Positions 36,147-50,967 of a stretch of DNA of 64,000 nt are shown piece after piece. The translations under genes were made by a program, and so were the position numbers. The DNA is from an uncultured Candidatus Saccharibacteria bacterium (GTDB taxonomy: Bacteria; Patescibacteriota; Doudnabacteria; UBA920), in contig CAYVOF010000001.1 of assembly GCA_964453405.1 (NCBI GenBank), positions 1,531 through 65,530 of the forward strand, read 5' to 3'. Position 1 is the first letter of the stretch. Each line of letters starts with the position of its first letter. Under the pieces are notes generated by a model that was given only the letters and a program-made list of their open reading frames with translations, made no database searches and had not been told where the DNA came from.

Positions 36147-36215
36147 CTGCAGTCAGAGTGCTAAATTGAAGACTCTGAAGATTTTGATAAAAATGTAATG
36201 GAGGCATTTGAATAT

Positions 36216-36779
36216 ATGAGATTAGTGTTATTTGCTTTGGTACCAGCTGTGGTGGTATTTGTCGTTACTTTACTTTTCGGTTTTTCCGAAACCGCAATAG
36301 TTATTTCTACCGGAGTGGGAGCTGTGCTGGGAGTAATCGTTGGGTTTGCGTCCACCCCAGACTATGATGACGATGAGTTATTTTCTCGCTCATCCAATCG
36401 AAGGAGTAACTATGGCGACGGTGTCGGGAGTGCACGAGGCTCAGGGCCTGACAGCCCTCCATCTCAGCGCACTGGGTCGCAGAAACGGCGTGATAACTCG
36501 GGTGTTGTTACAGACTCATCGTCACCATTCGATTATGGATATGGTGATTCTACTCACTCATCGTCACACACGGCTGACAGTCCTACTAGTCATGAGTCTG
36601 GCGGTCATTCTTTTGGTGGCGGCGGAGACTTTGGTGGCGGCGGAGCAGGTGGAAGTTTTGGTATCAGTCATTCTAGCAGCGCTTCCCATTCCGATACCAG
36701 TAGCCACTCTGACAGTGGTGGCAGCAGTGGAGGTGACAGTGGCGGAGGTGGTGACGGCGGGGGCGGAGGTGGTGATTAA
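36216..36779 (+). CDS. Membrane protein with a long Gly/Ser/Asp-rich disordered C-terminal tail
   Basis: GGAGG sits 11 nt upstream of ATG at 36216. Two TM helices, then low-complexity SHSSSASHSDTSSHSDSGGSSGGDSGGGGDGGGGGGD. Confidence 0.45.
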   Translation: MRLVLFALVPAVVVFVVTLLFGFSETAIVISTGVGAVLGVIVGFASTPDYDDDELFSRSSNRRSNYGDGVGSARGSGPDSPPSQRTGSQKRRDNSGVVTDSSSPFDYGYGDSTHSSSHTADSPTSHESGGHSFGGGGDFGGGGAGGSFGISHSSSASHSDTSSHSDSGGSSGGDSGGGGDGGGGGGD

Positions 36780-36798
36780 TATATCACCACATTAGTTT

Positions 36799-38325: not shown

Positions 38326-40437
38326 ATGAAAGTATTAGTAACCGGTGGAGCAGGATTTATCGGTAGCAACTTTGTTCGCTACTGGTTAAAAAATCACCCT
38401 CACGACACAGTCGTGAATTTTGATGCGCTTACTTATGCCGGAAACTTAGATAGCCTTCATGATTTAACAGTTAATCCCGAAACCAAAGATCGCTATAAAT
38501 TTATTCATGGCGATATTACCGATCCAATCGCAGTGCGCGAAGCAATGCGCGGTGTTGATTTAGTGGCGCACTTTGCGGCAAATTCTCACGTCGATCGCAG
38601 TATTGTTGAGCCGGGAAATTTTGTTAACACTAACGTGATGGGTACACAGGTTTTATTAGAAGAAGCTAAGAACGCAGGCGTGTGGCGTTTTCATCATGTG
38701 TCCACTGACGAAGTTTACGGAACACTGACTGTTGATGGTGATGAACTCTTTACCGAAGACACTAAGTACGCTCCCAACAATCCATACTCTGCTAGCAAGG
38801 CTGGTTCGGACATGGTCGTTCGTTCTTATTACAAGACTTACGATTTTCCTGCAACAATTACCAACACCTCCAACAACTTTGGTGCGTATCAGTTTCCAGA
38901 AAAATTTATCCCGTTGTGTATCACTCGTTTACTAGATGGCAAGAATATTCGGTTACATGGCAAAGGCGATCACATTCGTGATTGGTTGTTCGTCGAAGAT
39001 CATTGCCGTGCGATTGAACAAGTATTGCGCCGTGGCAAACTCGGCGAAGTTTATTTGGTTGCTGGTCGTGCGCAACTTTCTACTTTAGAAGTGGCACAAC
39101 GCATTTGTAAAGTCATGGGTGTAGGTGAAGATCGAATTGAATTCGTTCCTGATCGTCCAAGTAATGACAAAGCTTACAAACTCGACTGGAGCAAAATTAA
39201 TCGCGAACTTGGTTGGGAACCGTTGTTCAGTTTTGATGAATGGCTAGAACAAACTATCAATTGGTATCAAAATAACGAAGCTTGGTGGCGCCCACTAGTT
39301 AAACAGGGCTTTAGCTGGGGCAGTGTTGGTCACAAAGAAGAAGAAACAGAAGGTAAGGCTGTTAGTGTTCAGCAATCTGCTTACGGAAAAGCCAGTGAAG
39401 CTATTTCTAACTCGTCTGATTCACAACCAATTACTTTTTTAGAAAATTCCGGAATTCCAGCTAAACATCATTCAGATCAAAAACAGAAGGTATTAATTTT
39501 TGGTAATGGCCAGATGAGCATGCATTTCCGCAAGCATTACGAAGCACAAGGCGTGGAGGTGGTTATCGCCGCGTTGCCAGAAGTTAATGTTTTGAACGAG
39601 GTTCAAGTTGCAAATACTATTGATCAAGTTAAACCAACAGTGGTCTTTAACTGTACTGGCATGACCAATGTTGATTGGTGTGAAGCTAATCAAGAAGAAG
39701 CCTTAGCGGTTAATGTTCGTGGTGCCGAAAATATTGCTCGTGCTTGCATGCAAAAAAATGTTTACATGGTTCATTTTTCTACCGGCTATGTTCATGACTC
39801 TAAAGATATTACTGACGAACGCACAGAACTTGATCGCCCGAATCCAATTAATTTTTATGCACATACAAAAGCTAAAGCTGATGAGAGCTTAGCGCAGATG
39901 GCCAAGGTTGGGTTGAAGGTTTTGATTGTTCGAACTAATGCTTTGTTATCCGCCGTGCCACATCCAAAAAATGTGTTGGCCAAGATGACAATCTATCAAA
40001 AGTTTCACGATACTTATAGTTCAATGACAATCATTGAGGATCTCGTGGTTGCTACAGCTAAATTAGTTGAACAGCAAAAAACTGGTTTGTACAACGTTGT
40101 AAACCCTGGATTAACTTCACCGCTACGAATTGCCAACATGCTAAAAGAAATTATTAATCCTGACATGCAAATCGAACAACTCAGTAAGGCTGATGTCGAA
40201 AAAATGTATGCCGTGTTGCGACCAGATAGTATTTTATCGATTGCAAAATTGAACCGCGAAGGAATCCAGATGCCAGAAATTAATCAACGCTTACGCGGAA
40301 TAATTACTGTATTGCGTGATAATCTACGAAGCGAATCTGCTAAAGAGATTATGACCTTTACTGCTCAAGAAGATCAAAAGAAAAAAGACCTTAAGCAGGT
40401 TCAAGTAATCAATAACTTATTTAACAAAAACAGTTAA
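38326..40437 (+). CDS. Fusion protein: dTDP-glucose 4,6-dehydratase (RfbB/RmlB) N-terminal half plus dTDP-4-dehydrorhamnose reductase (RfbD/RmlD) C-terminal half
   Basis: Residues 1-330 carry MKVLVTGGAGFIGSN...YAGNL...SKAGSD (YxxxK) SDR motifs of RmlB. Residues about 385-650 carry KVLIFGNGQMSMHF...NCTGMTNVDWCE typical of RmlD. They are joined by a roughly 55-aa polar linker. Confidence 0.75.
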   Translation: MKVLVTGGAGFIGSNFVRYWLKNHPHDTVVNFDALTYAGNLDSLHDLTVNPETKDRYKFIHGDITDPIAVREAMRGVDLVAHFAANSHVDRSIVEPGNFVNTNVMGTQVLLEEAKNAGVWRFHHVSTDEVYGTLTVDGDELFTEDTKYAPNNPYSASKAGSDMVVRSYYKTYDFPATITNTSNNFGAYQFPEKFIPLCITRLLDGKNIRLHGKGDHIRDWLFVEDHCRAIEQVLRRGKLGEVYLVAGRAQLSTLEVAQRICKVMGVGEDRIEFVPDRPSNDKAYKLDWSKINRELGWEPLFSFDEWLEQTINWYQNNEAWWRPLVKQGFSWGSVGHKEEETEGKAVSVQQSAYGKASEAISNSSDSQPITFLENSGIPAKHHSDQKQKVLIFGNGQMSMHFRKHYEAQGVEVVIAALPEVNVLNEVQVANTIDQVKPTVVFNCTGMTNVDWCEANQEEALAVNVRGAENIARACMQKNVYMVHFSTGYVHDSKDITDERTELDRPNPINFYAHTKAKADESLAQMAKVGLKVLIVRTNALLSAVPHPKNVLAKMTIYQKFHDTYSSMTIIEDLVVATAKLVEQQKTGLYNVVNPGLTSPLRIANMLKEIINPDMQIEQLSKADVEKMYAVLRPDSILSIAKLNREGIQMPEINQRLRGIITVLRDNLRSESAKEIMTFTAQEDQKKKDLKQVQVINNLFNKNS

Positions 40438-41456
40438 TGGATAACGCGCCCAAAGTATCAATTAATATTTTAGGAACAAACGAAAAACATTTGCTAGAGC
40501 GAGCTATCTCTAGCATTTTTAAACAAGATTATCCAAATTACGAAGTACTATATATAGACAACGCTTCTTCGGATGGCTCAGAAGAATTTGTACGCCAGCG
40601 ATTTCCGCAAGTAAAAATTTTACAGACTGGTGAGAATCGCCATTATGGCCCAGCGCATAATAAAGGTTTTAAGGCAACAGATAGTGAGTTGATTTTGATT
40701 TTAAATGCCGATTTAGAATTGGCGGATAATTATTTATCCGAAGCTGTGGCAGCAATGATGCGCGATCCAAAAATTGCCGGAGTGAGTGGTAAAACTTTAC
40801 GACCAAAAAAGAATCCCAATGATCCAAACGAGCCGCAATTAATCGATAGCACAGGTTTAACTATTGATCGTATGCGTATTGTGCGCGATCGTGGTCAGTG
40901 GGAAGTGGATAAGGGTCAGTATGATACACCTGGAGAAGTGTTTGCGTTATGTGGTTCCAATCCTGTTTACCGCCGCGCCGCGCTTTTAGACGTTGCCATT
41001 GATGGCGAAATTTTAGACGAAGACATTACCGCGTTCTTTGATGACTCCGACTTAGGCTGGCGATTGCAACATCAAGGTTGGAAAGTTTGGTATCAGCCAA
41101 CTGCGATTTCTTATCACGAACGCGGGGTAGGACAGAGTCCAGGAGGTTATCGCCATTTGTTTGCTCTGGTTAAATATCGTCGTCGTTTTAGCTGGCGTAG
41201 CAAACAGCTCAGCTGGAAGAACAAAATGTACATTGTTATTAAGAATGATTTTGGTAAAACTCTGCGCCGCGATTGGCTGCGCATCGTCGCGCGCGAAATA
41301 GTCACTTTTGGTTTTATTTTAATTTTTGAAACCAAGACTTTAGCTGTTGTCCCAACTATTTTTAAACAGTTGCCAAACATCTGGCGCAAGCGCAAAATTA
41401 TTAAGCAGCGCAGTGTACTAGGCGACAACAATATCGACCGCTTCATTATCAAATAA
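40437..41456 (+). CDS. Family-2 glycosyltransferase (GT-A)
   Basis: SINILGTNEKHLL...YEVLYIDNASSDGS and DxD-like LNADLEL motifs. Start overlaps the preceding stop. Confidence 0.7.
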   Translation: MDNAPKVSINILGTNEKHLLERAISSIFKQDYPNYEVLYIDNASSDGSEEFVRQRFPQVKILQTGENRHYGPAHNKGFKATDSELILILNADLELADNYLSEAVAAMMRDPKIAGVSGKTLRPKKNPNDPNEPQLIDSTGLTIDRMRIVRDRGQWEVDKGQYDTPGEVFALCGSNPVYRRAALLDVAIDGEILDEDITAFFDDSDLGWRLQHQGWKVWYQPTAISYHERGVGQSPGGYRHLFALVKYRRRFSWRSKQLSWKNKMYIVIKNDFGKTLRRDWLRIVAREIVTFGFILIFETKTLAVVPTIFKQLPNIWRKRKIIKQRSVLGDNNIDRFIIK

Positions 41457-41472
41457 TCCGCCAACTATTTTT

Positions 41473-42387
41473 ATGGACATTTCATTTGTAATCACTCCTT
41501 GGAATTGTAAAGATTTACTGCAAGCTACCTTGAAGTCGATTTTTGCGAGCCAGACTAAATTCAGTTACGAAGTCATTGTATACGATCATGGTTCTACTGA
41601 TGGCAGTTTAGAAATGGTAGAAGCTGAGTTCCCACAAGTTGATTTAATCCGCGGTGGTGATGTTGGGTTTGCCGCAGCTAATAATGTCGGACTAAAAAAA
41701 TCCACTGGTCGTTATGCAGTTTTGCTTAACGCCGACACTGAACTCTCTACCGACACAATCGAAACCATGATTACTTTCATGGATGAAAATCCCAAAGTAG
41801 GAATCGCTACAGGGAAAGTTGTTTTAGCAGTTAGTGGTAAACTCGACAAAGCTTGTCGACGAAGTTTTCCAACACCGTGGGTATCGGCGGCTCGTATCAG
41901 TGGCCTTTCAAAAATCTTTCCTAAAAGTAAATTATTCAACCGATACAATTTTGAATACTTAAGTGAAGACGAAGCTTACGAAATTGATAGTTGTGTAGGT
42001 GCCTTCGAAATGATTCGTCGCGAGACAATGGATCAAATTGGTTTACTAGACGAGACCTTTTATATGTACGGCGAAGATATTGATTGGTGCTATCGCGCTA
42101 AGCAAGCTGGTTGGCAGGTCTGGTATTATCCAAAAACTACGATTTTGCATTACAAAGGTTATCTGTCTGGCAAGGCGAGTGGTAAGAAAAAACATAATCC
42201 ACGTCCAACTTGGGAATTTCATCGTGCCATGATCATTTTTTACTACAAGCATTTTTACAAAAAGTACCCTAAGCCTCTATCATGGTTAATTCTACTAACT
42301 ATTTGGGCAAGATATTTATTGGTTGCGCGCTTCAAAATTTACCCATCTGCTTCATTTTCTGGAGCACCAAATCCATATTTAAAATAA
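41473..42387 (+). CDS. Family-2 glycosyltransferase (rhamnosyltransferase-like)
   Basis: ISFVITPWNCKD...YEVIVYDHGSTDGS and LNADTEL motifs. Confidence 0.7.
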   Translation: MDISFVITPWNCKDLLQATLKSIFASQTKFSYEVIVYDHGSTDGSLEMVEAEFPQVDLIRGGDVGFAAANNVGLKKSTGRYAVLLNADTELSTDTIETMITFMDENPKVGIATGKVVLAVSGKLDKACRRSFPTPWVSAARISGLSKIFPKSKLFNRYNFEYLSEDEAYEIDSCVGAFEMIRRETMDQIGLLDETFYMYGEDIDWCYRAKQAGWQVWYYPKTTILHYKGYLSGKASGKKKHNPRPTWEFHRAMIIFYYKHFYKKYPKPLSWLILLTIWARYLLVARFKIYPSASFSGAPNPYLK

Positions 42388-42456: not shown

Positions 42457-43980
42457 ATGCCACCTACAGTTAACGACGACGATAAAAAATTCCCTAATGC
42501 CACCGAAGGTATCGCTGGCTTGTTAAACATTACTGCGCACGGTAACACAGGTCCACGGCCAGTTGACCAAGAGACATCTGAAGAGACATCTGAAGAATCA
42601 GCTGAGTCAACCTCTATGTTCGCAGAAAAATCAGTTGCACCACCAAGCAATTTGCCATTTGCAGATCAATCCGAGGATGAACATATGGACGAACTTGTAG
42701 GTGAACCAGTTGCTCAACCAACAAATGAGCCTAAGGATATAGCCAGCATGTTAAGTAGTCAACCAGTAAAGACACCAGAAGGAAAAATTGAAACGGTTGC
42801 CCAGGATCCTCCAGTTGGTACTAACTTAGAATCTACAAAAATAGTTAACCGCGGTTTTAATGTCATAAAAAAAATCCTACCTTACGTAGTAATTTTTGCC
42901 ATTGCTATAGGTTTGTATTTTTTCTATTTTAATGACTTTAGCTTTACGAGCTTATTTAATTCCCAGACTCTTAAACTAGAAAGTATAACCAGTTCTAATA
43001 CTAATAAAGAATATGAACAGCTTAAAAAAGATGCTGCGGCGGATTACGCTGTTTGGCTTAATCAATTTTTTACTGATGTTAATGACGATAGTATTTCGAG
43101 CATGGACGCCGATGTATCTGGTAATGGTTTAACTAACTTTGAAAAATATTTACTCAACTTAAATCCGAAAGTTTATTCTACTCGTGGCGGAACAGGGGAT
43201 GGTCAGTCCGTACTAGATGGTGTTAATCCTTGGACAGGCAAAACTTTTACAGATAAACAAAAACAACTAGTAGAAAAATATCTAAACCCAGAACTAATTA
43301 GCAACCGAATTACTGCAGCGGCAATTACTCGAGGCGTAACTAAATATGCACAATATGTAAATCCAGACTCCCCTTACTACATTGATCCAGCAACTCTTCA
43401 ACAGGCTGGTAGTAGCACTCAAGCCGTAGTTACTCCTACTCAGATTTCTACCACAACTCCGGCGAATATTCCAACCAACCAACAACCAAGTAATACTGTT
43501 AGTAATTTGCGACCAGACGAATCTATTGATCAAAGTAAACCGGCAATGTTAGACATTCCCGCGAATAAAATTTCTGTACCGTTAACATGGACTCAGGACG
43601 TCAAAGATTTTGAAGTAGATTTAAAGAAGGGTGTAGTGCATTATCCAGGCACGGCAATGCTAGGTGAAGTTGGTACGAGTTATATTTCTGGACATTCAAG
43701 TGGTTACGCATGGGACAAGAGCCCTTATAAACAAATTTTCGCTGGCTTAGGCGGCGTTAAAGATGGAACTTCATTTTCTATCACTGCAACTCAAAAGAAC
43801 GGTAAGACTGTGAAGTATAATTATATTGTTGATCATCGAGGTGAATTTGCCGCTAATGACCAGGCTCAATTCTTAAGCACCTCTGACTCTGTAGTAGCTT
43901 TATCGACTTGCTGGCCTGTTGGGACTACGGCGCGTCGATTAGTTCTTTTTGGTAAACTAACTCAAACTGAAAGAAGCTAA
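42457..43980 (+). CDS. Sortase-like transpeptidase with a long acidic/ST-rich N-terminal region and one TM helix
   Basis: The C-terminal about 200 aa carry a His (YISGHSSGY), the TLxTC-like active-site motif VALSTCWP, and a downstream Arg (TTARRLVLF). Confidence 0.5.
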   Translation: MPPTVNDDDKKFPNATEGIAGLLNITAHGNTGPRPVDQETSEETSEESAESTSMFAEKSVAPPSNLPFADQSEDEHMDELVGEPVAQPTNEPKDIASMLSSQPVKTPEGKIETVAQDPPVGTNLESTKIVNRGFNVIKKILPYVVIFAIAIGLYFFYFNDFSFTSLFNSQTLKLESITSSNTNKEYEQLKKDAAADYAVWLNQFFTDVNDDSISSMDADVSGNGLTNFEKYLLNLNPKVYSTRGGTGDGQSVLDGVNPWTGKTFTDKQKQLVEKYLNPELISNRITAAAITRGVTKYAQYVNPDSPYYIDPATLQQAGSSTQAVVTPTQISTTTPANIPTNQQPSNTVSNLRPDESIDQSKPAMLDIPANKISVPLTWTQDVKDFEVDLKKGVVHYPGTAMLGEVGTSYISGHSSGYAWDKSPYKQIFAGLGGVKDGTSFSITATQKNGKTVKYNYIVDHRGEFAANDQAQFLSTSDSVVALSTCWPVGTTARRLVLFGKLTQTERS

Positions 43981-43985
43981 AATTT

Positions 43986-44100
43986 AAAAAAAAGACAGTA
44001 TATTATTTTCTTTCGACTTACATGTCTACGTCGCCTTCACTGCTTCCGCAGTGGGCGACTGTGACCTGATAGTCTCTAGAAAAACAATATGCTGTCTTTT
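43986..44100 (+). ncRNA. Second nested-palindrome structured element (candidate small RNA or complex terminator)
   Basis: Outer 15-nt inverted repeat AAAAGACAGTATATT / AATATGCTGTCTTTT encloses about 80 nt. The enclosed sequence contains the hairpin GTCGCC-tt-CACTGC-ttcc-GCAGTG-g-GGCGAC. Confidence 0.4.
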
Positions 44101-44159
44101 TGATATTAAACTTCTTTTATTTATGCCAATTTTTCAATAACGGCGTTTTGGCTTTAGCC

Positions 44160-44188
44160 TTGACAAAATGGCTATTTTGTGCTAATAT
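44160..44188 (+). promoter_or_regulatory. Promoter (TTGACA-17-TGcTAATAT) driving a roughly 200-nt leader upstream of the secreted cassette
   Basis: Consensus -35 and extended -10. The next start codon is at 44400. Confidence 0.5.
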
Positions 44189-44399
44189 ATAACTTCGGGT
44201 CAATAGTATTGATTTAATGATAAATAGTAGTTATTATTGAGTGTTAGATAGGTTTCTGCTCGTTTCCCCTGGTATTTTACTACAGTCAGGCAGGAAATGA
44301 GCGAAAACATGTCTGGCACCGCGTCAAACAGTTGTAATACTAACGCTGTACGCGCGTTACAATAGACATAGATCTTTAAAAAATTCCTAGGGAGGGAAT

Positions 44400-45086
44400 A
44401 TGAAAAAAATTGCTATTATTGTGTTATTTGTTGTTGCTTTTTGTTTTGTTTCGCCGAGTTCATCGTATTCCCAGGGTAAAGATCGTTTGAAGATCGAAGT
44501 CCGGGGATTTGATAACAACGTTCAAACACAGCTAATGGTTTCCAAGTTCATGGCCGACAACGCCGACTGGGCAATCGTAGTTGATGCCAATCCAAAATGG
44601 ATCATGAGAGTTACTCAACAATCTGGATATGGTCAAACTTGGACACAGGTTGACCAAAAAGCTCAAACCAGGAACAACATGGTTCGTTCGGGAAACCAAA
44701 CGATTCGCAGCGTTACGAGAAATAGTCCATTTGATAGCTGGTGGGGACGAACGATCAAACAGACTATCCGTCAAGCTGGTCAAAGTCAATTGCAACGCTT
44801 CGCTAAACCGGAGCGGTATCAATACCGAAAGGAGCAGTCGAGTGTAACGGTCGAAGTAATCGATCCGATCACTCGTGAAGTTGCTTCTAAGGCAATCGGC
44901 ATCACAACAATTACCGTCAAAACTTTGCGTATGTCCGGCTATGAACCGCAAACGTATTTAGTTGAAGGTGATCTTTCGTCGGTTGGTATCGAGGCGGGTG
45001 CAAACCTGTTCGGAACCTACCGACAGCTCTTGCAGTTGTCAGCGTTTATGAACGCACAACGGCCGGAAAACCATATCATACAATAG
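44400..45086 (+). CDS. Secreted protein of unknown function (228 aa)
   Basis: Strong GGGAGGG RBS and a signal peptide (MKKIAIIVLFVVAFCFVSPSSS). Composition is GC-richer than the surrounding sequence. Resemblance to CsgG-like lipoproteins is only very weak and unverified. Confidence 0.45.
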   Translation: MKKIAIIVLFVVAFCFVSPSSSYSQGKDRLKIEVRGFDNNVQTQLMVSKFMADNADWAIVVDANPKWIMRVTQQSGYGQTWTQVDQKAQTRNNMVRSGNQTIRSVTRNSPFDSWWGRTIKQTIRQAGQSQLQRFAKPERYQYRKEQSSVTVEVIDPITREVASKAIGITTITVKTLRMSGYEPQTYLVEGDLSSVGIEAGANLFGTYRQLLQLSAFMNAQRPENHIIQ

Positions 45087-45096
45087 GAGTACTGGA

Positions 45097-46188
45097 ATGA
45101 AAATATTTGCAAGTATGTTGGTGATTATGGCGGTGGTGTTTAGTACGCTGCTGCCTCCGTCAGTCTCTGCTGTGACTCCGTTCACACCACAGACGAGTTC
45201 TATTTTATCGGATCAGGTTTTTACACCTGAGCCGATGGGTCCATTTGTCGCTCTTGCGGCAGGCAATTCATCCTACTATAGAAATGATCAAGTTATCTTT
45301 CAGGGTAGTGTTGTACGATTGAGTTCGGTTGATCTTCACATCGGTGCAGATCCAGAAATACCAGGCGGCGATCAATCGGCGCCTGCGAGTGATGAAGTCG
45401 ATACTTATTTGACTGAGCCGATCATCGTTATTACTCGGGCTCGTAGCAGGAGGTTTATACTCGGTACAGTTAATCCGGTAATCAACGGCGTTAAAGTCGT
45501 TGTGCGGCGGATTAAGGCTACAGGTAAAATTATCGAAATCCTTAATTGTGGTAACTGGACCAGAGCACTCAACAGTGATTACACTTTTGAGTGTGATACT
45601 ACGGTAGGGCCTTGCGTTCCTGGAGCGATGGAGATCAAAACAACCGAAGAAGTTTCGCCTGACGGCAAAACCAAAACAGTTGTTACTGTGTCTAGTGATG
45701 GTTGTACGACCAAGGTTGATACTAGGGTTGTGACAACTGAAATCAAAGAGGTTTGTACTGAAAATTCTTGGCTCGATGTATTTGAGCATGGTGATGTGAA
45801 CGGTAAACTTGGAAAATCTTTTAAGGCCGACGAGGTTATCGGACAACTGCCGCAAGAAATTCAAGACAACATCCATAAATCTCTGGGAGGTAAGAATAAG
45901 ATCAATTATATCTTCGTTCAGAGAGGTGCGTGCGAGAGCCAAGCGAGCTTGATTAGAGTTCGTTGGTTCCGCAAAGATGGAGGTCTCTCAAAATGGGTTT
46001 ACTTCTTGGTTGGAATGGGTGTCGGGGTCGGCCTTGGTTACATTATAAGAGGGTCCCCTGACAATCCGGTTTTCCAAGCGGCAAAGGCCGTCACTAAGGG
46101 AAAGAGTGAACCGATTCGAAAAACTATTACAGGGTCTGGTGTCACTAAAGGTGTGGTCGGATCGCGGCCCATAAGCCCGACAAGGTAA
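45097..46188 (+). CDS. Secreted cysteine-rich protein with a C-terminal TM anchor and basic tail (363 aa), unknown function
   Basis: Signal peptide, about 8 Cys in the ectodomain, TM helix WVYFLVGMGVGVGLGYII, then a Lys/Arg-rich cytoplasmic tail. RBS AGGAG. Confidence 0.45.
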   Translation: MKIFASMLVIMAVVFSTLLPPSVSAVTPFTPQTSSILSDQVFTPEPMGPFVALAAGNSSYYRNDQVIFQGSVVRLSSVDLHIGADPEIPGGDQSAPASDEVDTYLTEPIIVITRARSRRFILGTVNPVINGVKVVVRRIKATGKIIEILNCGNWTRALNSDYTFECDTTVGPCVPGAMEIKTTEEVSPDGKTKTVVTVSSDGCTTKVDTRVVTTEIKEVCTENSWLDVFEHGDVNGKLGKSFKADEVIGQLPQEIQDNIHKSLGGKNKINYIFVQRGACESQASLIRVRWFRKDGGLSKWVYFLVGMGVGVGLGYIIRGSPDNPVFQAAKAVTKGKSEPIRKTITGSGVTKGVVGSRPISPTR

Positions 46189-46220
46189 TAGCATAATTAG
46201 CACTTTAATTAGCGTAATAC

Positions 46221-46255
46221 ACGGCTTCGAACATTTGTTTGAAGCCGTTTTTTTA
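46221..46255 (+). terminator. Rho-independent terminator after the secreted cassette
   Basis: ACGGCTTC...GAAGCCGT long hairpin followed by TTTTTTT. Confidence 0.6.
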
Positions 46256-46355
46256 TATCCAAAATTTGGTACAATTTGCCCGTTCAAAATGCTATAATGT
46301 AGGTAATAAATAAATAGGCTAAATAAGCCTAACTTTTTGAAATTAATCTATATAT

Positions 46356-47081
46356 ATGAATAAATTGTCCGTGGTGATTCCCGCTTATAATGAAGAAAAG
46401 CGTATTACCGAAACCTTGCAAAATATTGATGGCTATCTCGAAAAGCAGCCTTATGATTACGAAATTATTGTTGTAGTGAACAACACCAAAGATAAGACTT
46501 TTGAAGTCGTTCAGAATCTCGAAAAAACTACTGTGCAAAAAGCTGTGGCTATGAATTTAGTAGAGGGCGGCAAGGGTAACGCGGTGCGTCGTGGGATTTT
46601 AGAAAAAGCGACCGGCGACATTGTGATGTTTATGGATGCCGACAATGCTACACCGATTTCGGAAATAGAAAAGTTCTTGCCATTCTTTGAACAAGGGTAC
46701 GATGTGGTAGTTGGTTCTCGCTACACTAACCCTGATTTGGTTAAAGTGCACCAGCCTTTTTACAGAATCATTTTATCGCGTATGAGCAACTTGTTGATTC
46801 AATTTTTAGCCGTTCCAGGAATTAAAGACACTCAACTTGGTTTTAAAGCTTTTACTGCTTCAGCTGCAAAAGATATTTTCCCAAAAGTAAAAATTTTACG
46901 CTGGGGCTTTGACATGGAAGTTTTGACTCTTGCCTTGGCGCATGGTTTTAAAATTAAAGAAGTGGGTGTGTCTTGGACCGAACATGGTGGCGGTCACGTT
47001 CCTCTCAAGGCTTACTTAGAATCATTGATCGATTTGTTTAAGATCAAATTCCGCTCCATTGCTGGGCAGTATAAGAAGTAG
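46356..47081 (+). CDS. Polyprenyl-phosphate glycosyltransferase (DPM1/GtrB-like GT2)
   Basis: LSVVIPAYNEEKRI...YEIIVVVNNTKDKT...FMDADNATP motifs of Dpm1-like soluble GT2 enzymes. Confidence 0.75.
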   Translation: MNKLSVVIPAYNEEKRITETLQNIDGYLEKQPYDYEIIVVVNNTKDKTFEVVQNLEKTTVQKAVAMNLVEGGKGNAVRRGILEKATGDIVMFMDADNATPISEIEKFLPFFEQGYDVVVGSRYTNPDLVKVHQPFYRIILSRMSNLLIQFLAVPGIKDTQLGFKAFTASAAKDIFPKVKILRWGFDMEVLTLALAHGFKIKEVGVSWTEHGGGHVPLKAYLESLIDLFKIKFRSIAGQYKK

Positions 47082-47139: not shown

Positions 47140-49026
47140 ATGTTATTAAATCTTAACCAGAGAATTTATCAATTTTTAATTCTGCCGTTATTCGCGGCAG
47201 TTTTAGTCTTGGTCCCAGCTCCATCTGCAGTTTTAGCTCAAGCTAGCTCTGTGGCTACAGTAAACTTTTCCTATACTACAAAGCTAAATTCTCCTAGTGC
47301 CCTGACTCAGCTAGGGCAGGTGGGTACTAATATTAGTCATCAATTTGAATTTTCAAAAAGCGCAGAGTTTTTAAATATATATACATTTCAATCCTCTCTT
47401 CCGATTGAACAGTTGCGCAAGCAACTCGTGGGCCCGCAGTCAAATCAAGTTAAGTATTTGGATTATGACTTAGGTGTTCAAGCCGGAGCGCTCACTGTAA
47501 CGCAATTACCAAATGATCCAAGTTTTACCACCAACGCTTCAAATATAGACAAGCAGTGGGGTTTGGTTAAGGCTGGGTTTGTAGAAGGTTGGGAAAAAAC
47601 CAAAGGTGACACTAAGGTTGTTGTAGCCGTAGTTGATACAGGTATAGATCGTACTCATGAAGATATTACTGCAACTAGATTTGTTGATGGCTATAATGTT
47701 CTAACTTCTAAAGTGATCTCGCAGTTTTCTAACTCGGATGATAATGGTCATGGGACTCTGATTTCTGGTGTTGTAGGAGCAGTTTCAAATAATGGAGTTG
47801 GTATTGCAGGAACTAACTGGAGCATAACTTTAATGCCAATCAAAGCATTAAACTCATCGGGCACTGGTTCGGCTAGCCAGATTTCGGAAGGAATAGTGTG
47901 GGCCACAGATCACGGCGCTAATATAATAAACTTATCTTTGGGTGGCGTTGGGTTTGCTCATGATACAACTTTATCTAACGCTATTACTTATGCTTTTGAA
48001 AAGAATGTAATTATTGTTGCTGCGGCAGGTAATGATGTTGCGATTACTGGCGGTAATTTGGATACTGAACCAGTCTTTCCAATTTGTAATGATAATGGAA
48101 AGAATATGGTAATTGGAGTTTCTGCTTCTGACAGCAATGATCTCAAGCCCGACTTTGCTAATTATGGGAAGGCTTGCGTCGATATAGTTGCACCTGGAAA
48201 GCGAATTTTATCTACTATAAACCATGACCCAGCAACAGGAAATAGTGCGCCAGATTCATACGCCTATGCCTCTGGGACGTCCTTGTCAGTTCCATATGTA
48301 AGTGGCCAAGCAGCTTTATTAAAGTCTTTATATCCATTTGCTTCTAATCGCCAGATTCGTGATCGAATTATTTCTACCGCAGATAATATTGATAATTTTA
48401 ACACCACCAAGTGTGGTGGCAGTACTTGTAAAGGCTTGCTCGGTAGTGGTCGAATAAACGTGGCAAACAGTTTAAGAGATATTATACCAACTCTTGTCGA
48501 TGGAGATGTGGTTCAAGTTAATAACAGTGGTGATTGGTATTTAATAAACGGTGGTAAGCGGCAAATCATCTCGCCTTTTGTACGCAGTCAACGGTTTGTA
48601 GGAGTTACCCCTAAACAAGTTTTTTACTCCGAAATAGAAAGATTCTCCGAAGGATCTTTTGCTGAGCCTAAGGATGGTACCTTAGTTAAGTCGCCGGACA
48701 ATAGCACGGTTTACTTTATGAGTAAGGGTTTGCGGTTGCCAGTGACTTATCAGATTTTTCAGTTATATCATTTTGACTTTAAAAACGTCTTCACTTTATC
48801 ACCAGCCGAAGTTAACTCTTGGGTGATGGGTGGATTTTTAACTCCTCCAGAAGGCACTTTGGTGCGCACTCCAAAAAATCAAACTGTATATTGGGTTGTG
48901 GGGCAAGTTCTTCACCCAATCAATTACAAGTTTTATATAGACAGAGGCTTAAATATTTTTTCAGTAATTTACGTACCCGACAATGATTTAACTAAATTAC
49001 CAACAGGGGAGAGCTACACCTTATAA
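47140..49026 (+). CDS. Secreted subtilisin-like serine protease (S8) with about three C-terminal ~65-aa repeat modules
   Basis: Signal peptide and a catalytic triad in VAVVDTGIDRTHED (Asp), HGTLISGVVGA (His) and GTSLSVPYVSGQAALL (Ser). The C-terminal repeats contain G-T-L-V-K/R-x-P-x-N-x-T-V-Y. Confidence 0.8.
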   Translation: MLLNLNQRIYQFLILPLFAAVLVLVPAPSAVLAQASSVATVNFSYTTKLNSPSALTQLGQVGTNISHQFEFSKSAEFLNIYTFQSSLPIEQLRKQLVGPQSNQVKYLDYDLGVQAGALTVTQLPNDPSFTTNASNIDKQWGLVKAGFVEGWEKTKGDTKVVVAVVDTGIDRTHEDITATRFVDGYNVLTSKVISQFSNSDDNGHGTLISGVVGAVSNNGVGIAGTNWSITLMPIKALNSSGTGSASQISEGIVWATDHGANIINLSLGGVGFAHDTTLSNAITYAFEKNVIIVAAAGNDVAITGGNLDTEPVFPICNDNGKNMVIGVSASDSNDLKPDFANYGKACVDIVAPGKRILSTINHDPATGNSAPDSYAYASGTSLSVPYVSGQAALLKSLYPFASNRQIRDRIISTADNIDNFNTTKCGGSTCKGLLGSGRINVANSLRDIIPTLVDGDVVQVNNSGDWYLINGGKRQIISPFVRSQRFVGVTPKQVFYSEIERFSEGSFAEPKDGTLVKSPDNSTVYFMSKGLRLPVTYQIFQLYHFDFKNVFTLSPAEVNSWVMGGFLTPPEGTLVRTPKNQTVYWVVGQVLHPINYKFYIDRGLNIFSVIYVPDNDLTKLPTGESYTL

Positions 49027-49110: not shown

Positions 49111-50967
49111 ATGACTAAAAAATCTTTACTTTTTATACTTGCAACTGTTGTAGTTTCTTCATTAGGAATTACGCCGAATTTAGCTCAAGCCCAAGAAGCT
49201 GTTTTACCAGGTTTTACACCGAATCGTTTGATAGAAGATTCTGTATTTTCCGACAAGACCACTTTTGGTGGTAGCGAAGGCATTCAGAAGTTTTTAGAAA
49301 GCAAAAATAGTATTTTAGCTAATAAGTCCTCTGACTTCGTGGCTAAATTGCGTGAACCAAATAATGCTGCACTCAAAACTACCCTAGAAGACTCTCGTCC
49401 TAGTTTGGACCATCTACGTACTGCAGCAGAATTAATTTGGGATGCCAGTCAGACCAGCGGCATAAATCCTCAGGTTGTAATTGTAACTTTGCAAAAAGAA
49501 CAAGGACTTATTACAGCTCGACAAAATGCTACACCAGAACAAGTTCAAACCGCGCTAGATTACGCTATGGGTTTTGGTTGTCCAGACTCCGGTGGTTGCG
49601 GCGCACTGTATAAAGGATTTTATTATCAGTTGTTTGGAAATGTTGATGCCGAAAATAACCGTTATCTTGGTGCGACTAAGTCTTTAATGAAATCATTTAC
49701 TACCCCAGGCGGTCGCGGCCCGTTTTATAACGGTGCAGTTTCTAAAGTAGGCGACACAATTATATTAGGCAATACTTTGGGTGGTTACAGTCCTATCGAA
49801 GCTCAGCAGAGCGTTATCATCGAAAATTCAGCCACTGCAGCACTTTATAGATTTACTCCACACGTCTTTAATGGTAACTACAATTTTTGGCGATATATGA
49901 ACCAGTGGTTCCGTTATCCAACAGGAACTATCATTAGCAGTCCTAACGGACAAAAGTACATGATCCAAAATGGTAGTCGTTTGCAAGTTAATGACTTTAT
50001 CGCTCGTACTCGTAATTTAAATTTGGCTAGCCCAATCATGTTGTCGTTTAATGAATTAGAGAGCTATCCAGACGGCGGCTTGCTCGGTTTGGCTGATAAT
50101 ACCGTGGCGATTGCAGAAGGTAAAGTCTACGTGTTCTTGAATAACAAAAAACACGCCGCTAGTCCGTTTGTAATTACTCAACGTGGTTTGTCTATGAATA
50201 CCGCTGTTAATGCAAGTGTGGCAGATTTAGCGACATACGTAGACGGTCCACAATTAACTCCTTCCGAAGGGTCTGTGTTACGAGGTATCAATGGCCCTGC
50301 GGTGTATATAGTTCAAAACAATCAATTGCGATTAATCTCGGCTTTAGTTTTTGCACAGCGTAATTTAGCTAACAAAATTCAACTTCTTCCTGATGCCGAA
50401 TTAGCGCTCTATCCTAAAGGTGGTTTTCTTCCACCATTTGATGGTACCTTAGTTAAATCTCCGAGTGTGCAAACTGTGTTCTTGGTTCGCGATCAAATTA
50501 AACGTCCAATGACTGGCTTAGTATTTAAAACTTACGGATTTAAGTTCGCGGATGTAAAAACAATAAGTGATGATGAACTGCTTGGAATGCCAACTGGTAC
50601 AATTGCCGAACCAAAAGATCCAACTTATTATCAAATCGCTGGAAGCGGCGAACTATATATTTATAAAAATGCTAGTCGCCACTTTGTGTCTAAATTTGTG
50701 GCCAAGCAAAAAGCTATTACTGCAGACGTGACCTTTAACACTGACGAAGTTGCAAATTGGCCCGAAGGGGATGCCATTTTGCCAAAAGAAGGAACGCTTG
50801 TTAAAGCAGATAATAGCGCCACTGTTTATATTGTAGAAAATGGTCAGCTACTAGCTCTAAGTGGTGCCGATTTTACGACCCGTAAGTTAAGCTTTAAAAA
50901 TGTAAATGTTTTGTCAGGTGCAGAAGTAGCCAAGTACCCAATTAAGGGAGCAAATGAGCGATCTTAA
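49111..50967 (+). CDS. Large secreted protein: unknown N-terminal domain plus five or six copies of the repeat module found in the adjacent S8 protease
   Basis: Signal peptide. Repeats GTLVKSPSVQTVFLV, GTLVKADNSATVYIVENGQLL, GSVLRGINGPAVYIVQNNQLRLI, each ending near a YP-x-GG motif. Confidence 0.5.
   Translation: MTKKSLLFILATVVVSSLGITPNLAQAQEAVLPGFTPNRLIEDSVFSDKTTFGGSEGIQKFLESKNSILANKSSDFVAKLREPNNAALKTTLEDSRPSLDHLRTAAELIWDASQTSGINPQVVIVTLQKEQGLITARQNATPEQVQTALDYAMGFGCPDSGGCGALYKGFYYQLFGNVDAENNRYLGATKSLMKSFTTPGGRGPFYNGAVSKVGDTIILGNTLGGYSPIEAQQSVIIENSATAALYRFTPHVFNGNYNFWRYMNQWFRYPTGTIISSPNGQKYMIQNGSRLQVNDFIARTRNLNLASPIMLSFNELESYPDGGLLGLADNTVAIAEGKVYVFLNNKKHAASPFVITQRGLSMNTAVNASVADLATYVDGPQLTPSEGSVLRGINGPAVYIVQNNQLRLISALVFAQRNLANKIQLLPDAELALYPKGGFLPPFDGTLVKSPSVQTVFLVRDQIKRPMTGLVFKTYGFKFADVKTISDDELLGMPTGTIAEPKDPTYYQIAGSGELYIYKNASRHFVSKFVAKQKAITADVTFNTDEVANWPEGDAILPKEGTLVKADNSATVYIVENGQLLALSGADFTTRKLSFKNVNVLSGAEVAKYPIKGANERS

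Follow-up and report, generated by a model that had tools for sequence, protein, structure and literature searches.

A conserved promoter and putative structured leader RNA in front of a variable pair of predicted surface protein genes in a Saccharibacteria envelope locus

Background

Loci in which conserved flanks enclose variable surface or antigen genes have been described in several bacteria, and they include the slpA region of Clostridioides difficile, the O-antigen and capsule loci, and the sap expression site of Campylobacter fetus. Another described arrangement is the 5' untranslated region (5' UTR) that stabilises the mRNA of an abundant envelope protein, such as those of ompA in Escherichia coli or slpA in Lactobacillus or Thermus. 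Here we analyse a two-gene cassette (genes A and B, with their promoter, leader and terminator) in a 64,000-nucleotide stretch of DNA from an uncultured Candidatus Saccharibacteria bacterium (the window hereafter, 39.5% GC over the whole 64 kb). An earlier reading of the letters alone (the original prediction) had singled this cassette out as a GC-richer, self-contained module for exported proteins that had been horizontally acquired and inserted into a glycan locus. In the literature on Saccharibacteria sortases, S-layers and riboswitches we found nothing on this locus. The explanation that we favour as a whole, and that we regard as probable, is that an autonomous transcription unit with a strong promoter lies here within the conserved envelope locus of a small Saccharibacteria/Patescibacteria clade, and that it is a conserved slot from which a variable, recombining surface module is expressed.

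Results

Promoter, terminator and leader RNA

The cassette starts with a sigma-70-type promoter (Table 1) that has 10 of the 12 possible matches plus the TG of an extended -10 box, and that is the top promoter-like site within 43500-47000. Its elements TTGACAAAA and TGNTANTAT, arranged as TTGACAAAA-N-TGNTANTAT, were kept in all 13 distinct related loci and also in locus L021. At the other end, the intrinsic terminator has a stem of 12 bp (6 of them G-C pairs) and a 4-nt loop, and a GC-rich hairpin followed by a T-run was present 3' of the cassette genes in all 11 loci that reach the next gene, a GT2 glycosyltransferase (GT2c). This gene carries TGNTATAAT upstream in 11 of 11 loci compared. The predicted promoter, structured leader of about 200 nt and strong terminator were thus all found, and the view of the cassette as self-contained was borne out as well, since in every locus the GT2 gene downstream has an extended -10 promoter of its own. 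For the same reason processive antitermination into that gene was dropped as unnecessary.

From the -10 box the transcription start was inferred to lie at about 44195, which gives a leader of about 205 nt, and the region 44190-44410 folds at -62.7 kcal/mol (z = -4.7). In an alignment of the intergenic region between the sortase gene and gene A, most of the spacer could not be aligned, and the promoter plus a block of about 110 nt were nearly invariant. The leader comparison set consisted of 13 distinct sequences. Hairpin P0 was present in 12 of the 12 loci folded (a set outside which L018 and L004 stand), and its arms change together, being UCAAG/CUUGA in most loci, UCAAU/AUUGA in the window and UCAUAC/GUAUGA in L002.

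The core of the leader is hairpin P1, whose apical loop region (GGUAUUUNNCUACAGUC) is invariant and whose 3' strand (ACAUGUCUGNCA) varies in a single base (G in 11 of the 13 sequences, A in the other two). The consensus structure (RNAalifold) contains 31 pairs. Counting one sequence at one pair as the unit, 97.5% of the pair positions were paired, versus 40-46% in slid controls; compensatory two-sided changes occurred at 3 pairs, and 15 further pair types were present. The covariation score of 0.172 exceeded the highest values of the slid controls (0.066) and of the shuffles (0.119), and none of 500 shuffles reached the observed value. Mean pairwise identity was 84.7% for P1, versus 76.8% for the DNA of GT2c and 47.5% for GT2c third codon positions, and in each of the 36 genome pairs P1 was above GT2c, the most conserved of the neighbouring genes, in DNA identity. 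A covariance model of P1 found a single copy in the window, on the + strand, with 141.9 bits; the antisense strand gave 29.5 bits. Judged by these comparisons, promoter and structured leader are under purifying selection, and the leader is both the best-conserved sequence of the region and its most novel element.

Downstream of P1, the position of P2 folds as a hairpin in 13 of 13 sequences, with stem and loop sequences and lengths that differ among them; P0 and P2 covary across loci. Next comes the UAGACAU box, of which AGACA is kept in 10 of the 13 leaders, and the AUGUCU partner strand in P1 is invariant at the complementary positions. Purely as a hypothesis, the box might act as an alternative pairing partner of the P1 3' strand. 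The Shine-Dalgarno sequence (SD) lies under a small hairpin in 10 of the 13 minimum-energy folds, with arms such as UUCC/GGAA, GCC/GGC and AUUC/GAAU. No terminator-like site was found between the RNA and gene A, which argues for a leader and not for a separate gene.

Searches with Rfam 15 gave no match in the window at gathering thresholds, and when E was relaxed to at most 10 over 43950-44450 the only model overlapping P1 was a microRNA (15.4 bits, as compared with a gathering score of 100). We scanned 185,579 species-representative genomes with a sequence pattern of the RNA, and 6 genomes matched with one copy each. A scan of metagenomes yielded only duplicates of L012, and the pattern was absent from the viral contigs scanned. 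Locus L021 has this promoter too, and downstream of it a P1-like hairpin of smaller size, GGGTAGAT...CTTCC-TTAA-GGAAATGG...ATGTGCCCGGCA, whose basal stem differs on both sides with the pairing kept.

Three other readings of the leader were rejected. A resemblance to the RNA of the signal recognition particle (GUCAGG..GGAA, seen by eye) was dropped because the GGAA sits in a helix rather than in a tetraloop. A leader peptide starting at the invariant ATG of ACATGTCTGG would be conserved for only 3-4 codons, with indels breaking the open reading frame (ORF), and most of the conserved leader block lies upstream of that ATG. Finally, the complementarity required for a pseudoknot between the loops of P1 and P2 is limited to the window and L001.

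The spacer between the sortase gene and the promoter, and in one case the leader itself, carries lineage-specific repeats that by their look are small insertions of the repetitive extragenic palindrome type. These are tandem GC-rich units CCCCCTCCTCGTGAAGGGAG in the spacer of L002 (641-960), a unit of about 27 nt (TTTAACAAAAGTCATTCTGAG) duplicated inside the leader of L012 upstream of P1 (2500-2560), and CCTCCCC/GGGGAGG hairpins in the spacer of L020 (1676-1800).

Divergence and replacement of the cassette genes

The order GT2-GT2-sortase-A-B-GT2-S8-unknown was found in every contig that was long enough, including the complete 943-kb genome CP064996.1, and the slot between the sortase gene and the GT2 and S8 genes was filled in 13 of 13 related Saccharibacteria/Patescibacteria loci and in two more distant ones. 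The latter carry distant B homologues in the same slot (profile E 2e-41 and 1e-12), and in both a gene remotely homologous to A comes first (hhalign probability 84% and 92%). Contig ends and assembly gaps aside, A and B are co-encoded wherever either occurs, so that the co-encoding check suggested with the original prediction gave the same pair at the same position in every uncut locus having either gene. This constancy of pairing and position argues against an insertion. One apparent loss of A, in L004 (= L013), was rejected, as a run of N directly past the leader (about 1630-1740) removes A and the start of B; the missing gene is thus an assembly gap or a masked stretch and not biology.

Flanking proteins overall were 55-99% identical. 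Identity to the window was 82-91% for GT2c, 58-90% for the sortase, 56-79% for the S8 peptidase and 58-79% for the 618-amino-acid (aa) protein encoded after it, and it was 26-52% for A and 41-60% for B. Across all pairs of loci, identity in B and in the flanks was not significantly correlated (Spearman rho -0.06 to 0.29). Loci L007 and L009, for instance, share 96% identity in the sortase, 89% in A and 63% in B, and along their B genes 60-nt DNA windows of about 82-90% identity alternate with others of 27-53%, i.e. the genes are mosaic. In L012, B carries a different ectodomain on the same C-terminal module. In L008 and L011, promoter and leader are kept and the flanks are 71-91% identical to the window, with a different cargo: a Cys-rich membrane-anchored protein of 373-392 aa and a secreted protein of 96 aa, unrelated to A or B (hhalign probability 1.7% and 7.6%).

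No diversity-generating retroelement was indicated by a repeat search of the whole window, in which 44400-46188 gave only chance-level matches of 34 nt at 71% identity. As to hallmarks of mobility, no tRNA, integrase, transposase or meaningful flanking or direct repeats were found, nor any ORF with a mobility domain in the interval 38.3-53.4 kb. The proposed horizontal acquisition by insertion into the glycan locus did not stand, given that the slot is filled in all related loci, that hallmarks of mobility are absent and that the GC excess described below recurs. We conclude that the cargo is recurrently diversified or replaced within an ancestral slot.

Base composition and codon usage

Genes A and B have GC contents of 0.450 (rank 4 of 56 genes) and 0.461 (rank 2), versus a gene mean of 0.400 (z = 1.65 and 2.0, respectively). 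In GC at third codon positions (GC3) they rank 1 and 5 of 56, and when their synonymous codons are compared with those of the window's 55 remaining long ORFs, their fit ranks 52 and 55 of 56. Three 1-kb segments elsewhere are equally GC-rich. The raised GC of the original prediction was therefore seen, together with atypical codon usage, but the deviation, although real, is modest (z about 1.7-2.0). Overall, the original observation was confirmed in part and its interpretation supported in part.

The excess recurs outside the window: cargo GC lies above that of the flanks in every locus, overall and at third positions, with the exception of gene A of L002 (0.452 vs 0.477 in a sortase fragment). 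In L005 A and B have 0.47 and 0.49 versus 0.33 in GT2c, in L004 B has 0.44 versus about 0.35, and the alternative cargo of L008 has 0.51 versus 0.35. The rise at third positions covers G- and C-ending codons and is strongest for the former. For the cargo, G at four-fold sites is 0.24 vs 0.13 and G/(G+A) 0.42 vs 0.32; C over U is barely changed in the window (0.37 vs 0.32), and in L012 it is reversed. An excess that comes back in each genome examined belongs to the slot, and a single foreign insertion cannot explain it. Recombination-associated GC bias has been put forward for bacteria as a hypothesis, and this bias or a shared pool of GC-richer cassettes are the candidate sources.

Proteins A and B

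Both genes encode proteins with signal-like N-terminal segments, as had been predicted, and neither protein matched Pfam, NCBIfam, PHROGs, PADLOC or sequences in PDB. For A in particular, Pfam gave nothing at E up to 0.1 except a noise match to FlaG, NCBIfam gave nothing, and a sequence profile against PDB found nothing at E up to 10. Among 5.8 billion clusters, 4 homologues of A were found by single-sequence search and 9 by profile. Of the two proteins, for which a CsgG-like fold had been suggested as a possibility, only A resembles CsgG/TraT. Its AlphaFold model (predicted local distance difference test, pLDDT, 81.6; predicted template modelling score 0.64) matched TraT (E 3.7e-5) and CsgG (E 2e-4) first in Foldseek, with low TM-scores of 0.26-0.37. 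On this model, A is predicted to have a CsgG/TraT/LptE-type alpha/beta core with an inserted helical hairpin (residues 86-134), and the core fold is common with that of the CsgG family (Pfam PF03783). The hairpin has a mean hydropathy of -1.23 and 9 K/R versus 1 D/E. No lipobox was found in A; Cys15, in the signal peptide, is not kept among 8 homologues, and the mature N-terminus aligns at a conserved Gln. A thus uses the same fold but is no member of the CsgG/TraT families.

Protein B has a Gly-rich transmembrane helix at about residues 299-318 and then a tail of 44 residues with 8 K/R versus 2 D/E (net +6), in agreement with the predicted C-terminal anchor and basic tail. Its ectodomain holds 6 cysteines, and not about 8 as had been counted by eye; all are invariant in the homologues and they probably form three disulfides. 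The tail ends in TRPRRP in most homologues and in ISPTR in the window, and the conserved motifs are GG.PQVPGG..ADEEDV, NCGNW.R, GKLGK.FKV, GACE and, before the membrane helix, WF.K.GGW.W. The structural model of B was poor, and no structural match was obtained. A word-indexed search found 10 clusters of homologues among 5.8 billion, and an exhaustive profile search of 1.84 billion representatives found 23 proteins at E up to 1e-3. The 20 B-family matches that were read have 325-429 aa, a hydrophobic signal-like N-terminus and a hydrophobic C-terminal segment; the weakest match to the profile is a repeat protein of 546 aa (P0039), unlike the rest. No LPXTG-like motif precedes the transmembrane helix in 10 homologues, the 44-residue tail is also unlike the short tail of a sorting signal, and a regular-expression scan found no LPXTG-type signal in any window ORF of at least 100 aa. 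A role of B as substrate of the adjacent sortase is accordingly unsupported.

The antisense ORF of 224 codons noticed by the original prediction is present, and it mirrors B codon for codon. B rarely uses TTA, CTA or TCA (1.1% of its codons vs 5.8% in other genes, and none in codons 58-298), so that the open frame is a by-product of codon usage and not a gene.

Setting of the cassette in the envelope locus

The features analysed are collected in Table 1. The genes around A and B, among them those for sugar-nucleotide enzymes, GT2 proteins, a sortase and a flippase, make the setting a cell-envelope and glycan locus, as the original prediction had it.

Table 1. Features of the cassette and its surroundings in the window
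Feature	Coordinates	Strand	Remarks
Fused sugar-nucleotide epimerase/dehydratase gene		+	Upstream part of the envelope locus
Two GT2 glycosyltransferase genes	40437-41456, 41473-42387	+	
Sortase-domain membrane protein gene	42457-43980	+	507 aa; C-terminal sortase domain, Pfam E 9.5e-13
Long nested hairpin	43989-44101	+	Directly 3' of the sortase stop codon; T-run at end
Sigma-70-type promoter	44160-44188	+	TTGACA 44160-44165, 17-nt spacer, TG 44180-44181, TAATAT 44183-44188
P0, small hairpin	44198-44214	+	GGUCAAU-AGU-AUUGAUU; a few nt from the inferred transcript 5' end
P1, hairpin of the leader core	44241-44319	+	79 nt
P2, hairpin	44320-44357	+	CCGCG..ACAGYWG-loop-CUGU..CGCGG
UAGACAU box	44363-44369	+	Conserved; complementary to AUGUCU of the P1 3' strand
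Small hairpin with Shine-Dalgarno sequence	44384-44399	+	GGGAGGG 44390-44396; arms UUCCUA/GGGAAU
Gene A	44400-45086	+	228 aa, predicted secreted; N-terminal hydrophobic signal-like segment
Gene B	45097-46188	+	363 aa, predicted type I membrane protein; signal-like N-terminus
Antisense ORF	45268-45942	-	224 codons; codon-aligned reverse complement of B; no gene
Intrinsic terminator of the A-B unit	46221-46255	+	Stem-loop 46221-46248, then T-run
Extended -10 box of GT2c	46290-46298	+	TGCTATAAT; 3' boundary of the cassette
Third GT2 gene (GT2c)	46356-47081	+	Gene after the cassette
S8 subtilase/peptidase gene	47140-49026	+	
Gene for 618-aa protein without family	49111-50967	+	After the S8 gene
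Polysacc_synt-type flippase and cytidylyltransferase genes		+	Past the 618-aa gene; flippase assigned by synteny with L001

A nested palindrome had been noted at 43986, upstream of the cassette. A stable hairpin is indeed there (-52.4 kcal/mol, z = -10 in RNA folding), but its sequence is not kept in related loci, where other hairpins or repeats occupy the place. As it ends in a T-run right past the sortase stop codon it looks like a sortase terminator, and it is probably an intrinsic terminator or insulator of that gene, outside the conserved unit. An integron-like cassette was rejected on account of the lack of an integrase and of the unconserved palindrome.

The sortase is unusual: it has an N-terminal extension of about 360 residues with one transmembrane segment (residues 140-158) and a catalytic-type LSTC motif at Cys485, and it matched classes C, D and E weakly (34 bits versus NCBIfam cut-offs of 140-165). 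The C-terminal parts of the S8 peptidase and of the 618-aa protein share a repeated domain with motifs like PEGTLVK..TVY.V..G, and in tblastn residues 380-536 of the latter gave matches of about 29% identity that fall within the S8 genes of related loci; this domain may be a wall-binding or substrate-binding module. Between the promoter and the start codon of GT2c there is a perfect 6-bp palindrome (TAGGCT-AAATA-AGCCTA, 46315-46331) that was flagged as terminator-like on both strands, and different small hairpins occur at the equivalent position in L005, L008 and L011; the palindrome may belong to a leader of the GT2 gene. Elsewhere in the window, ORF 36198-36779 is the GC-richest (GC 0.517; 0.588 at second codon positions) and has the worst codon fit of the 56 genes. 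It had no Pfam match and is overlapped in another frame by an ORF of 151 aa (36340-36795); it may encode a low-complexity protein or be a mis-called frame near the ribosomal protein L21 region seen in L001.

Discussion

We propose that transcription would start at the invariant extended -10 promoter with a leader of about 205 nt, containing P0, P1, the variable P2 and a small hairpin at the ribosome-binding site (RBS), and would continue into the genes for two envelope proteins, A being secreted and B spanning the membrane once with a basic cytoplasmic tail, before the terminator closes the unit. Promoter and leader would constitute an ancestral expression slot kept by purifying selection, and the cargo a fast-diversifying surface module. 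The cargo would turn over repeatedly through homologous recombination, with the conserved leader on one side and the conserved GT2 gene on the other, and GC-biased gene conversion may accompany this. Acting in cis, the leader would secure expression that is high and perhaps regulated, combining stabilisation by the 5' hairpin with binding of a protein or ligand at P1, and A and B may work together at the cell surface. Diversification of the cargo may be driven by interaction with hosts or phages. Cultivated Patescibacteria are described as episymbiotic (PMC11623550), a lifestyle that makes such a role plausible. The proposal is weakest on how the leader works: it may be a passive stabiliser, an operator bound by a protein, or a riboswitch. 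We consider doubtful a bolder version in which the P1-P2 leader would be a new class of cis-regulatory RNA (a protein or ligand switch) over a swappable cassette for host or phage specificity, and would also serve as the upstream homology arm.

Several observations weigh against the proposal of a conserved slot with recombining cargo. The leader sequences are few and close (13, with an effective number of 1.67) and two-sided changes affect only 3 of the 31 pairs of P1, so that the covariation is suggestive and not statistically decisive. The leader of L021 matched the P1 model weakly, and its homology to P1 is tentative because the score is only 12.7 bits (E 0.78); for the leader of L020, another distant locus, no relation is apparent. 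The high conservation of P1 could be that of a site acting at the DNA level, donors richer in GC could be the source of the GC excess instead of biased gene conversion, and some of the divergence could have arisen by fast evolution in place, driven by diversifying selection with no recombination. In addition, B is without a fold assignment (a model of pLDDT 48, with no fold match), and the start of transcription, the co-transcription and the abundance are predictions.

A foreign two-gene module inserted once and recently into the glycan locus would account for the raised GC and GC3, the atypical codons, the orphan proteins and the presence of a promoter and a terminator of their own. We nevertheless judge such an island very improbable, since the slot is occupied in 13 related and 2 distant loci, no DNA of the region is as conserved as promoter and leader, integrase, transposase, tRNA and direct repeats were not found, and the GC excess appears in every genome whatever its own GC. 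The same compositional shift might instead reflect very high expression (translational selection), as in genes for S-layer or major outer-membrane proteins, with the leader as a stabiliser of the ompA/slpA type. An extended -10 promoter, a 5'-proximal P0, a long structured leader and a strong terminator agree with this, and so does the avoidance of TTA, CTA and TCA in B. What is seen, however, is a general rise in G+C, strongest for G-ending codons, and not the preference of C over U that is typical of translational selection; moreover, simple stabilisers are rarely 85% conserved over 79 nt among genomes whose synonymous sites are saturated. This makes an explanation by expression level alone unlikely in our opinion.

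With regard to the leader, a riboswitch or another switch sensing a ligand or protein could be envisaged, P1 being the sensor and the AUGUCU-UAGACAU pairing altering access to the RBS. The conserved loops and 3' strand inside a conserved helix, the AGACA of 10 of the 13 leaders with its complementarity to that strand, the SD within a small covarying hairpin and the absence of a match to known RNA families would all suit a switch, but metabolite aptamers seldom consist of one long hairpin with no multi-helix junction, the leader has no terminator, and the cargo genes hint at no ligand. In addition, the invariance of the AUGUCU strand means that covariation cannot address the alternative pairing, and the tentative homologue in L021 is without the apical part of P1; a switch therefore seems to us an outside candidate. 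Much the same conservation, helices included, and the strong promoter directly upstream could point to an independent small RNA gene or to a protein-binding site in DNA. This we find highly unlikely, given the lack of a terminator-like site before gene A, the conserved distance to the start codon and SD context, the G-U pairs that make the structure specific to RNA of the + strand, and the compensatory changes that keep the pairing. As to the proteins, A and B might form an oligomeric channel or secretion device like CsgG/TraT: the fold of A is nearest to the ring-forming CsgG, PelC, TraT and LptE, A and B are always paired, and the cytoplasmic tail of B is conserved. On the other hand, A has no lipobox and its helical hairpin is polar and basic, Saccharibacteria are regarded as lacking an outer membrane, and machinery is normally conserved, while A and B are the most variable proteins of the locus and are missing from L008 and L011. 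We thus take a channel to be a rather remote alternative. The conserved expression slot with exchangeable surface cargo remains the reading that we prefer.

Patescibacteria live attached to host bacteria, and the locus is a concrete candidate for the surface molecules that set host range and for their expression. No other part of this otherwise conserved envelope locus changes as fast as the cargo of the slot, which is present in a single copy, strongly promoted and next to a sortase and glycan genes. More strongly constrained than the enzymes encoded beside it, the leader lends itself to RNA biochemistry and, with the covariance model R1 or the pattern GGAAANGAGCNNNNACATGTCTGRCA, could mark variants of the cassette in metagenomes. 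The GC excess of the cargo across genomes of differing composition may, in turn, be a clean natural test of recombination-associated GC bias in very small genomes.

Comparison with known systems

The locus resembles the variable surface and antigen loci in its conserved flanks and 5' expression region, in an exported surface cargo that is divergent, mosaic or replaced, in a cargo composition unlike that of the flanks, and in its strong promoter and terminator. It differs from them in having one copy per genome, with no silent cassettes or invertible elements found, and an orphan cargo. In addition, the conserved 5' element would here be a structured non-coding RNA and not a coding N-terminus, and the clade is one of episymbiotic Patescibacteria. 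With the 5' UTRs of ompA and slpA it shares a leader of more than 100 nt, a strong promoter and an exported envelope protein downstream, and its P0 hairpin would likewise lie near the 5' end. In contrast to them, its leader has a 79-nt hairpin about 85% conserved across genomes that are saturated at synonymous sites, which implies a sequence-specific recognition beyond stabilisation. Riboswitches and the leader RNAs of Rfam are similar in being conserved, putatively structured and strand-specific elements of the 5' UTR with pair-preserving changes and a possible alternative pairing near the RBS, but here the core is a single hairpin, there is no platform of the terminator type, and the distribution is very narrow (13 distinct sequences).

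Protein A differs from the lipoproteins of the CsgG/PelC/LptE/LpoB/TraT fold in having neither a sequence-family match nor a conserved lipobox cysteine. Like TraT it has an inserted helical hairpin, although that of A is polar and basic and that of TraT is hydrophobic and inserts into the outer membrane; TraT is also a lipoprotein encoded in a conjugative tra operon, whereas A is without a lipobox and no tra genes are near. More generally, none of the partner genes of the CsgG family (csg, pel, lpt, tra) is found at the A locus, where the neighbours are sortase, GT2 and S8 peptidase genes.

The narrow spread of the system (13 distinct leaders and about 20 B-family proteins worldwide) limits the claim that can be made. 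Long stabilising leaders have precedents, and so do variable surface loci between conserved flanks. The novelty lies in the lineage, in the two orphan families, one of them a non-lipidated protein of predicted CsgG/TraT fold from bacteria regarded as having no outer membrane, and in a previously undescribed putative leader RNA that outlasts its cargo.

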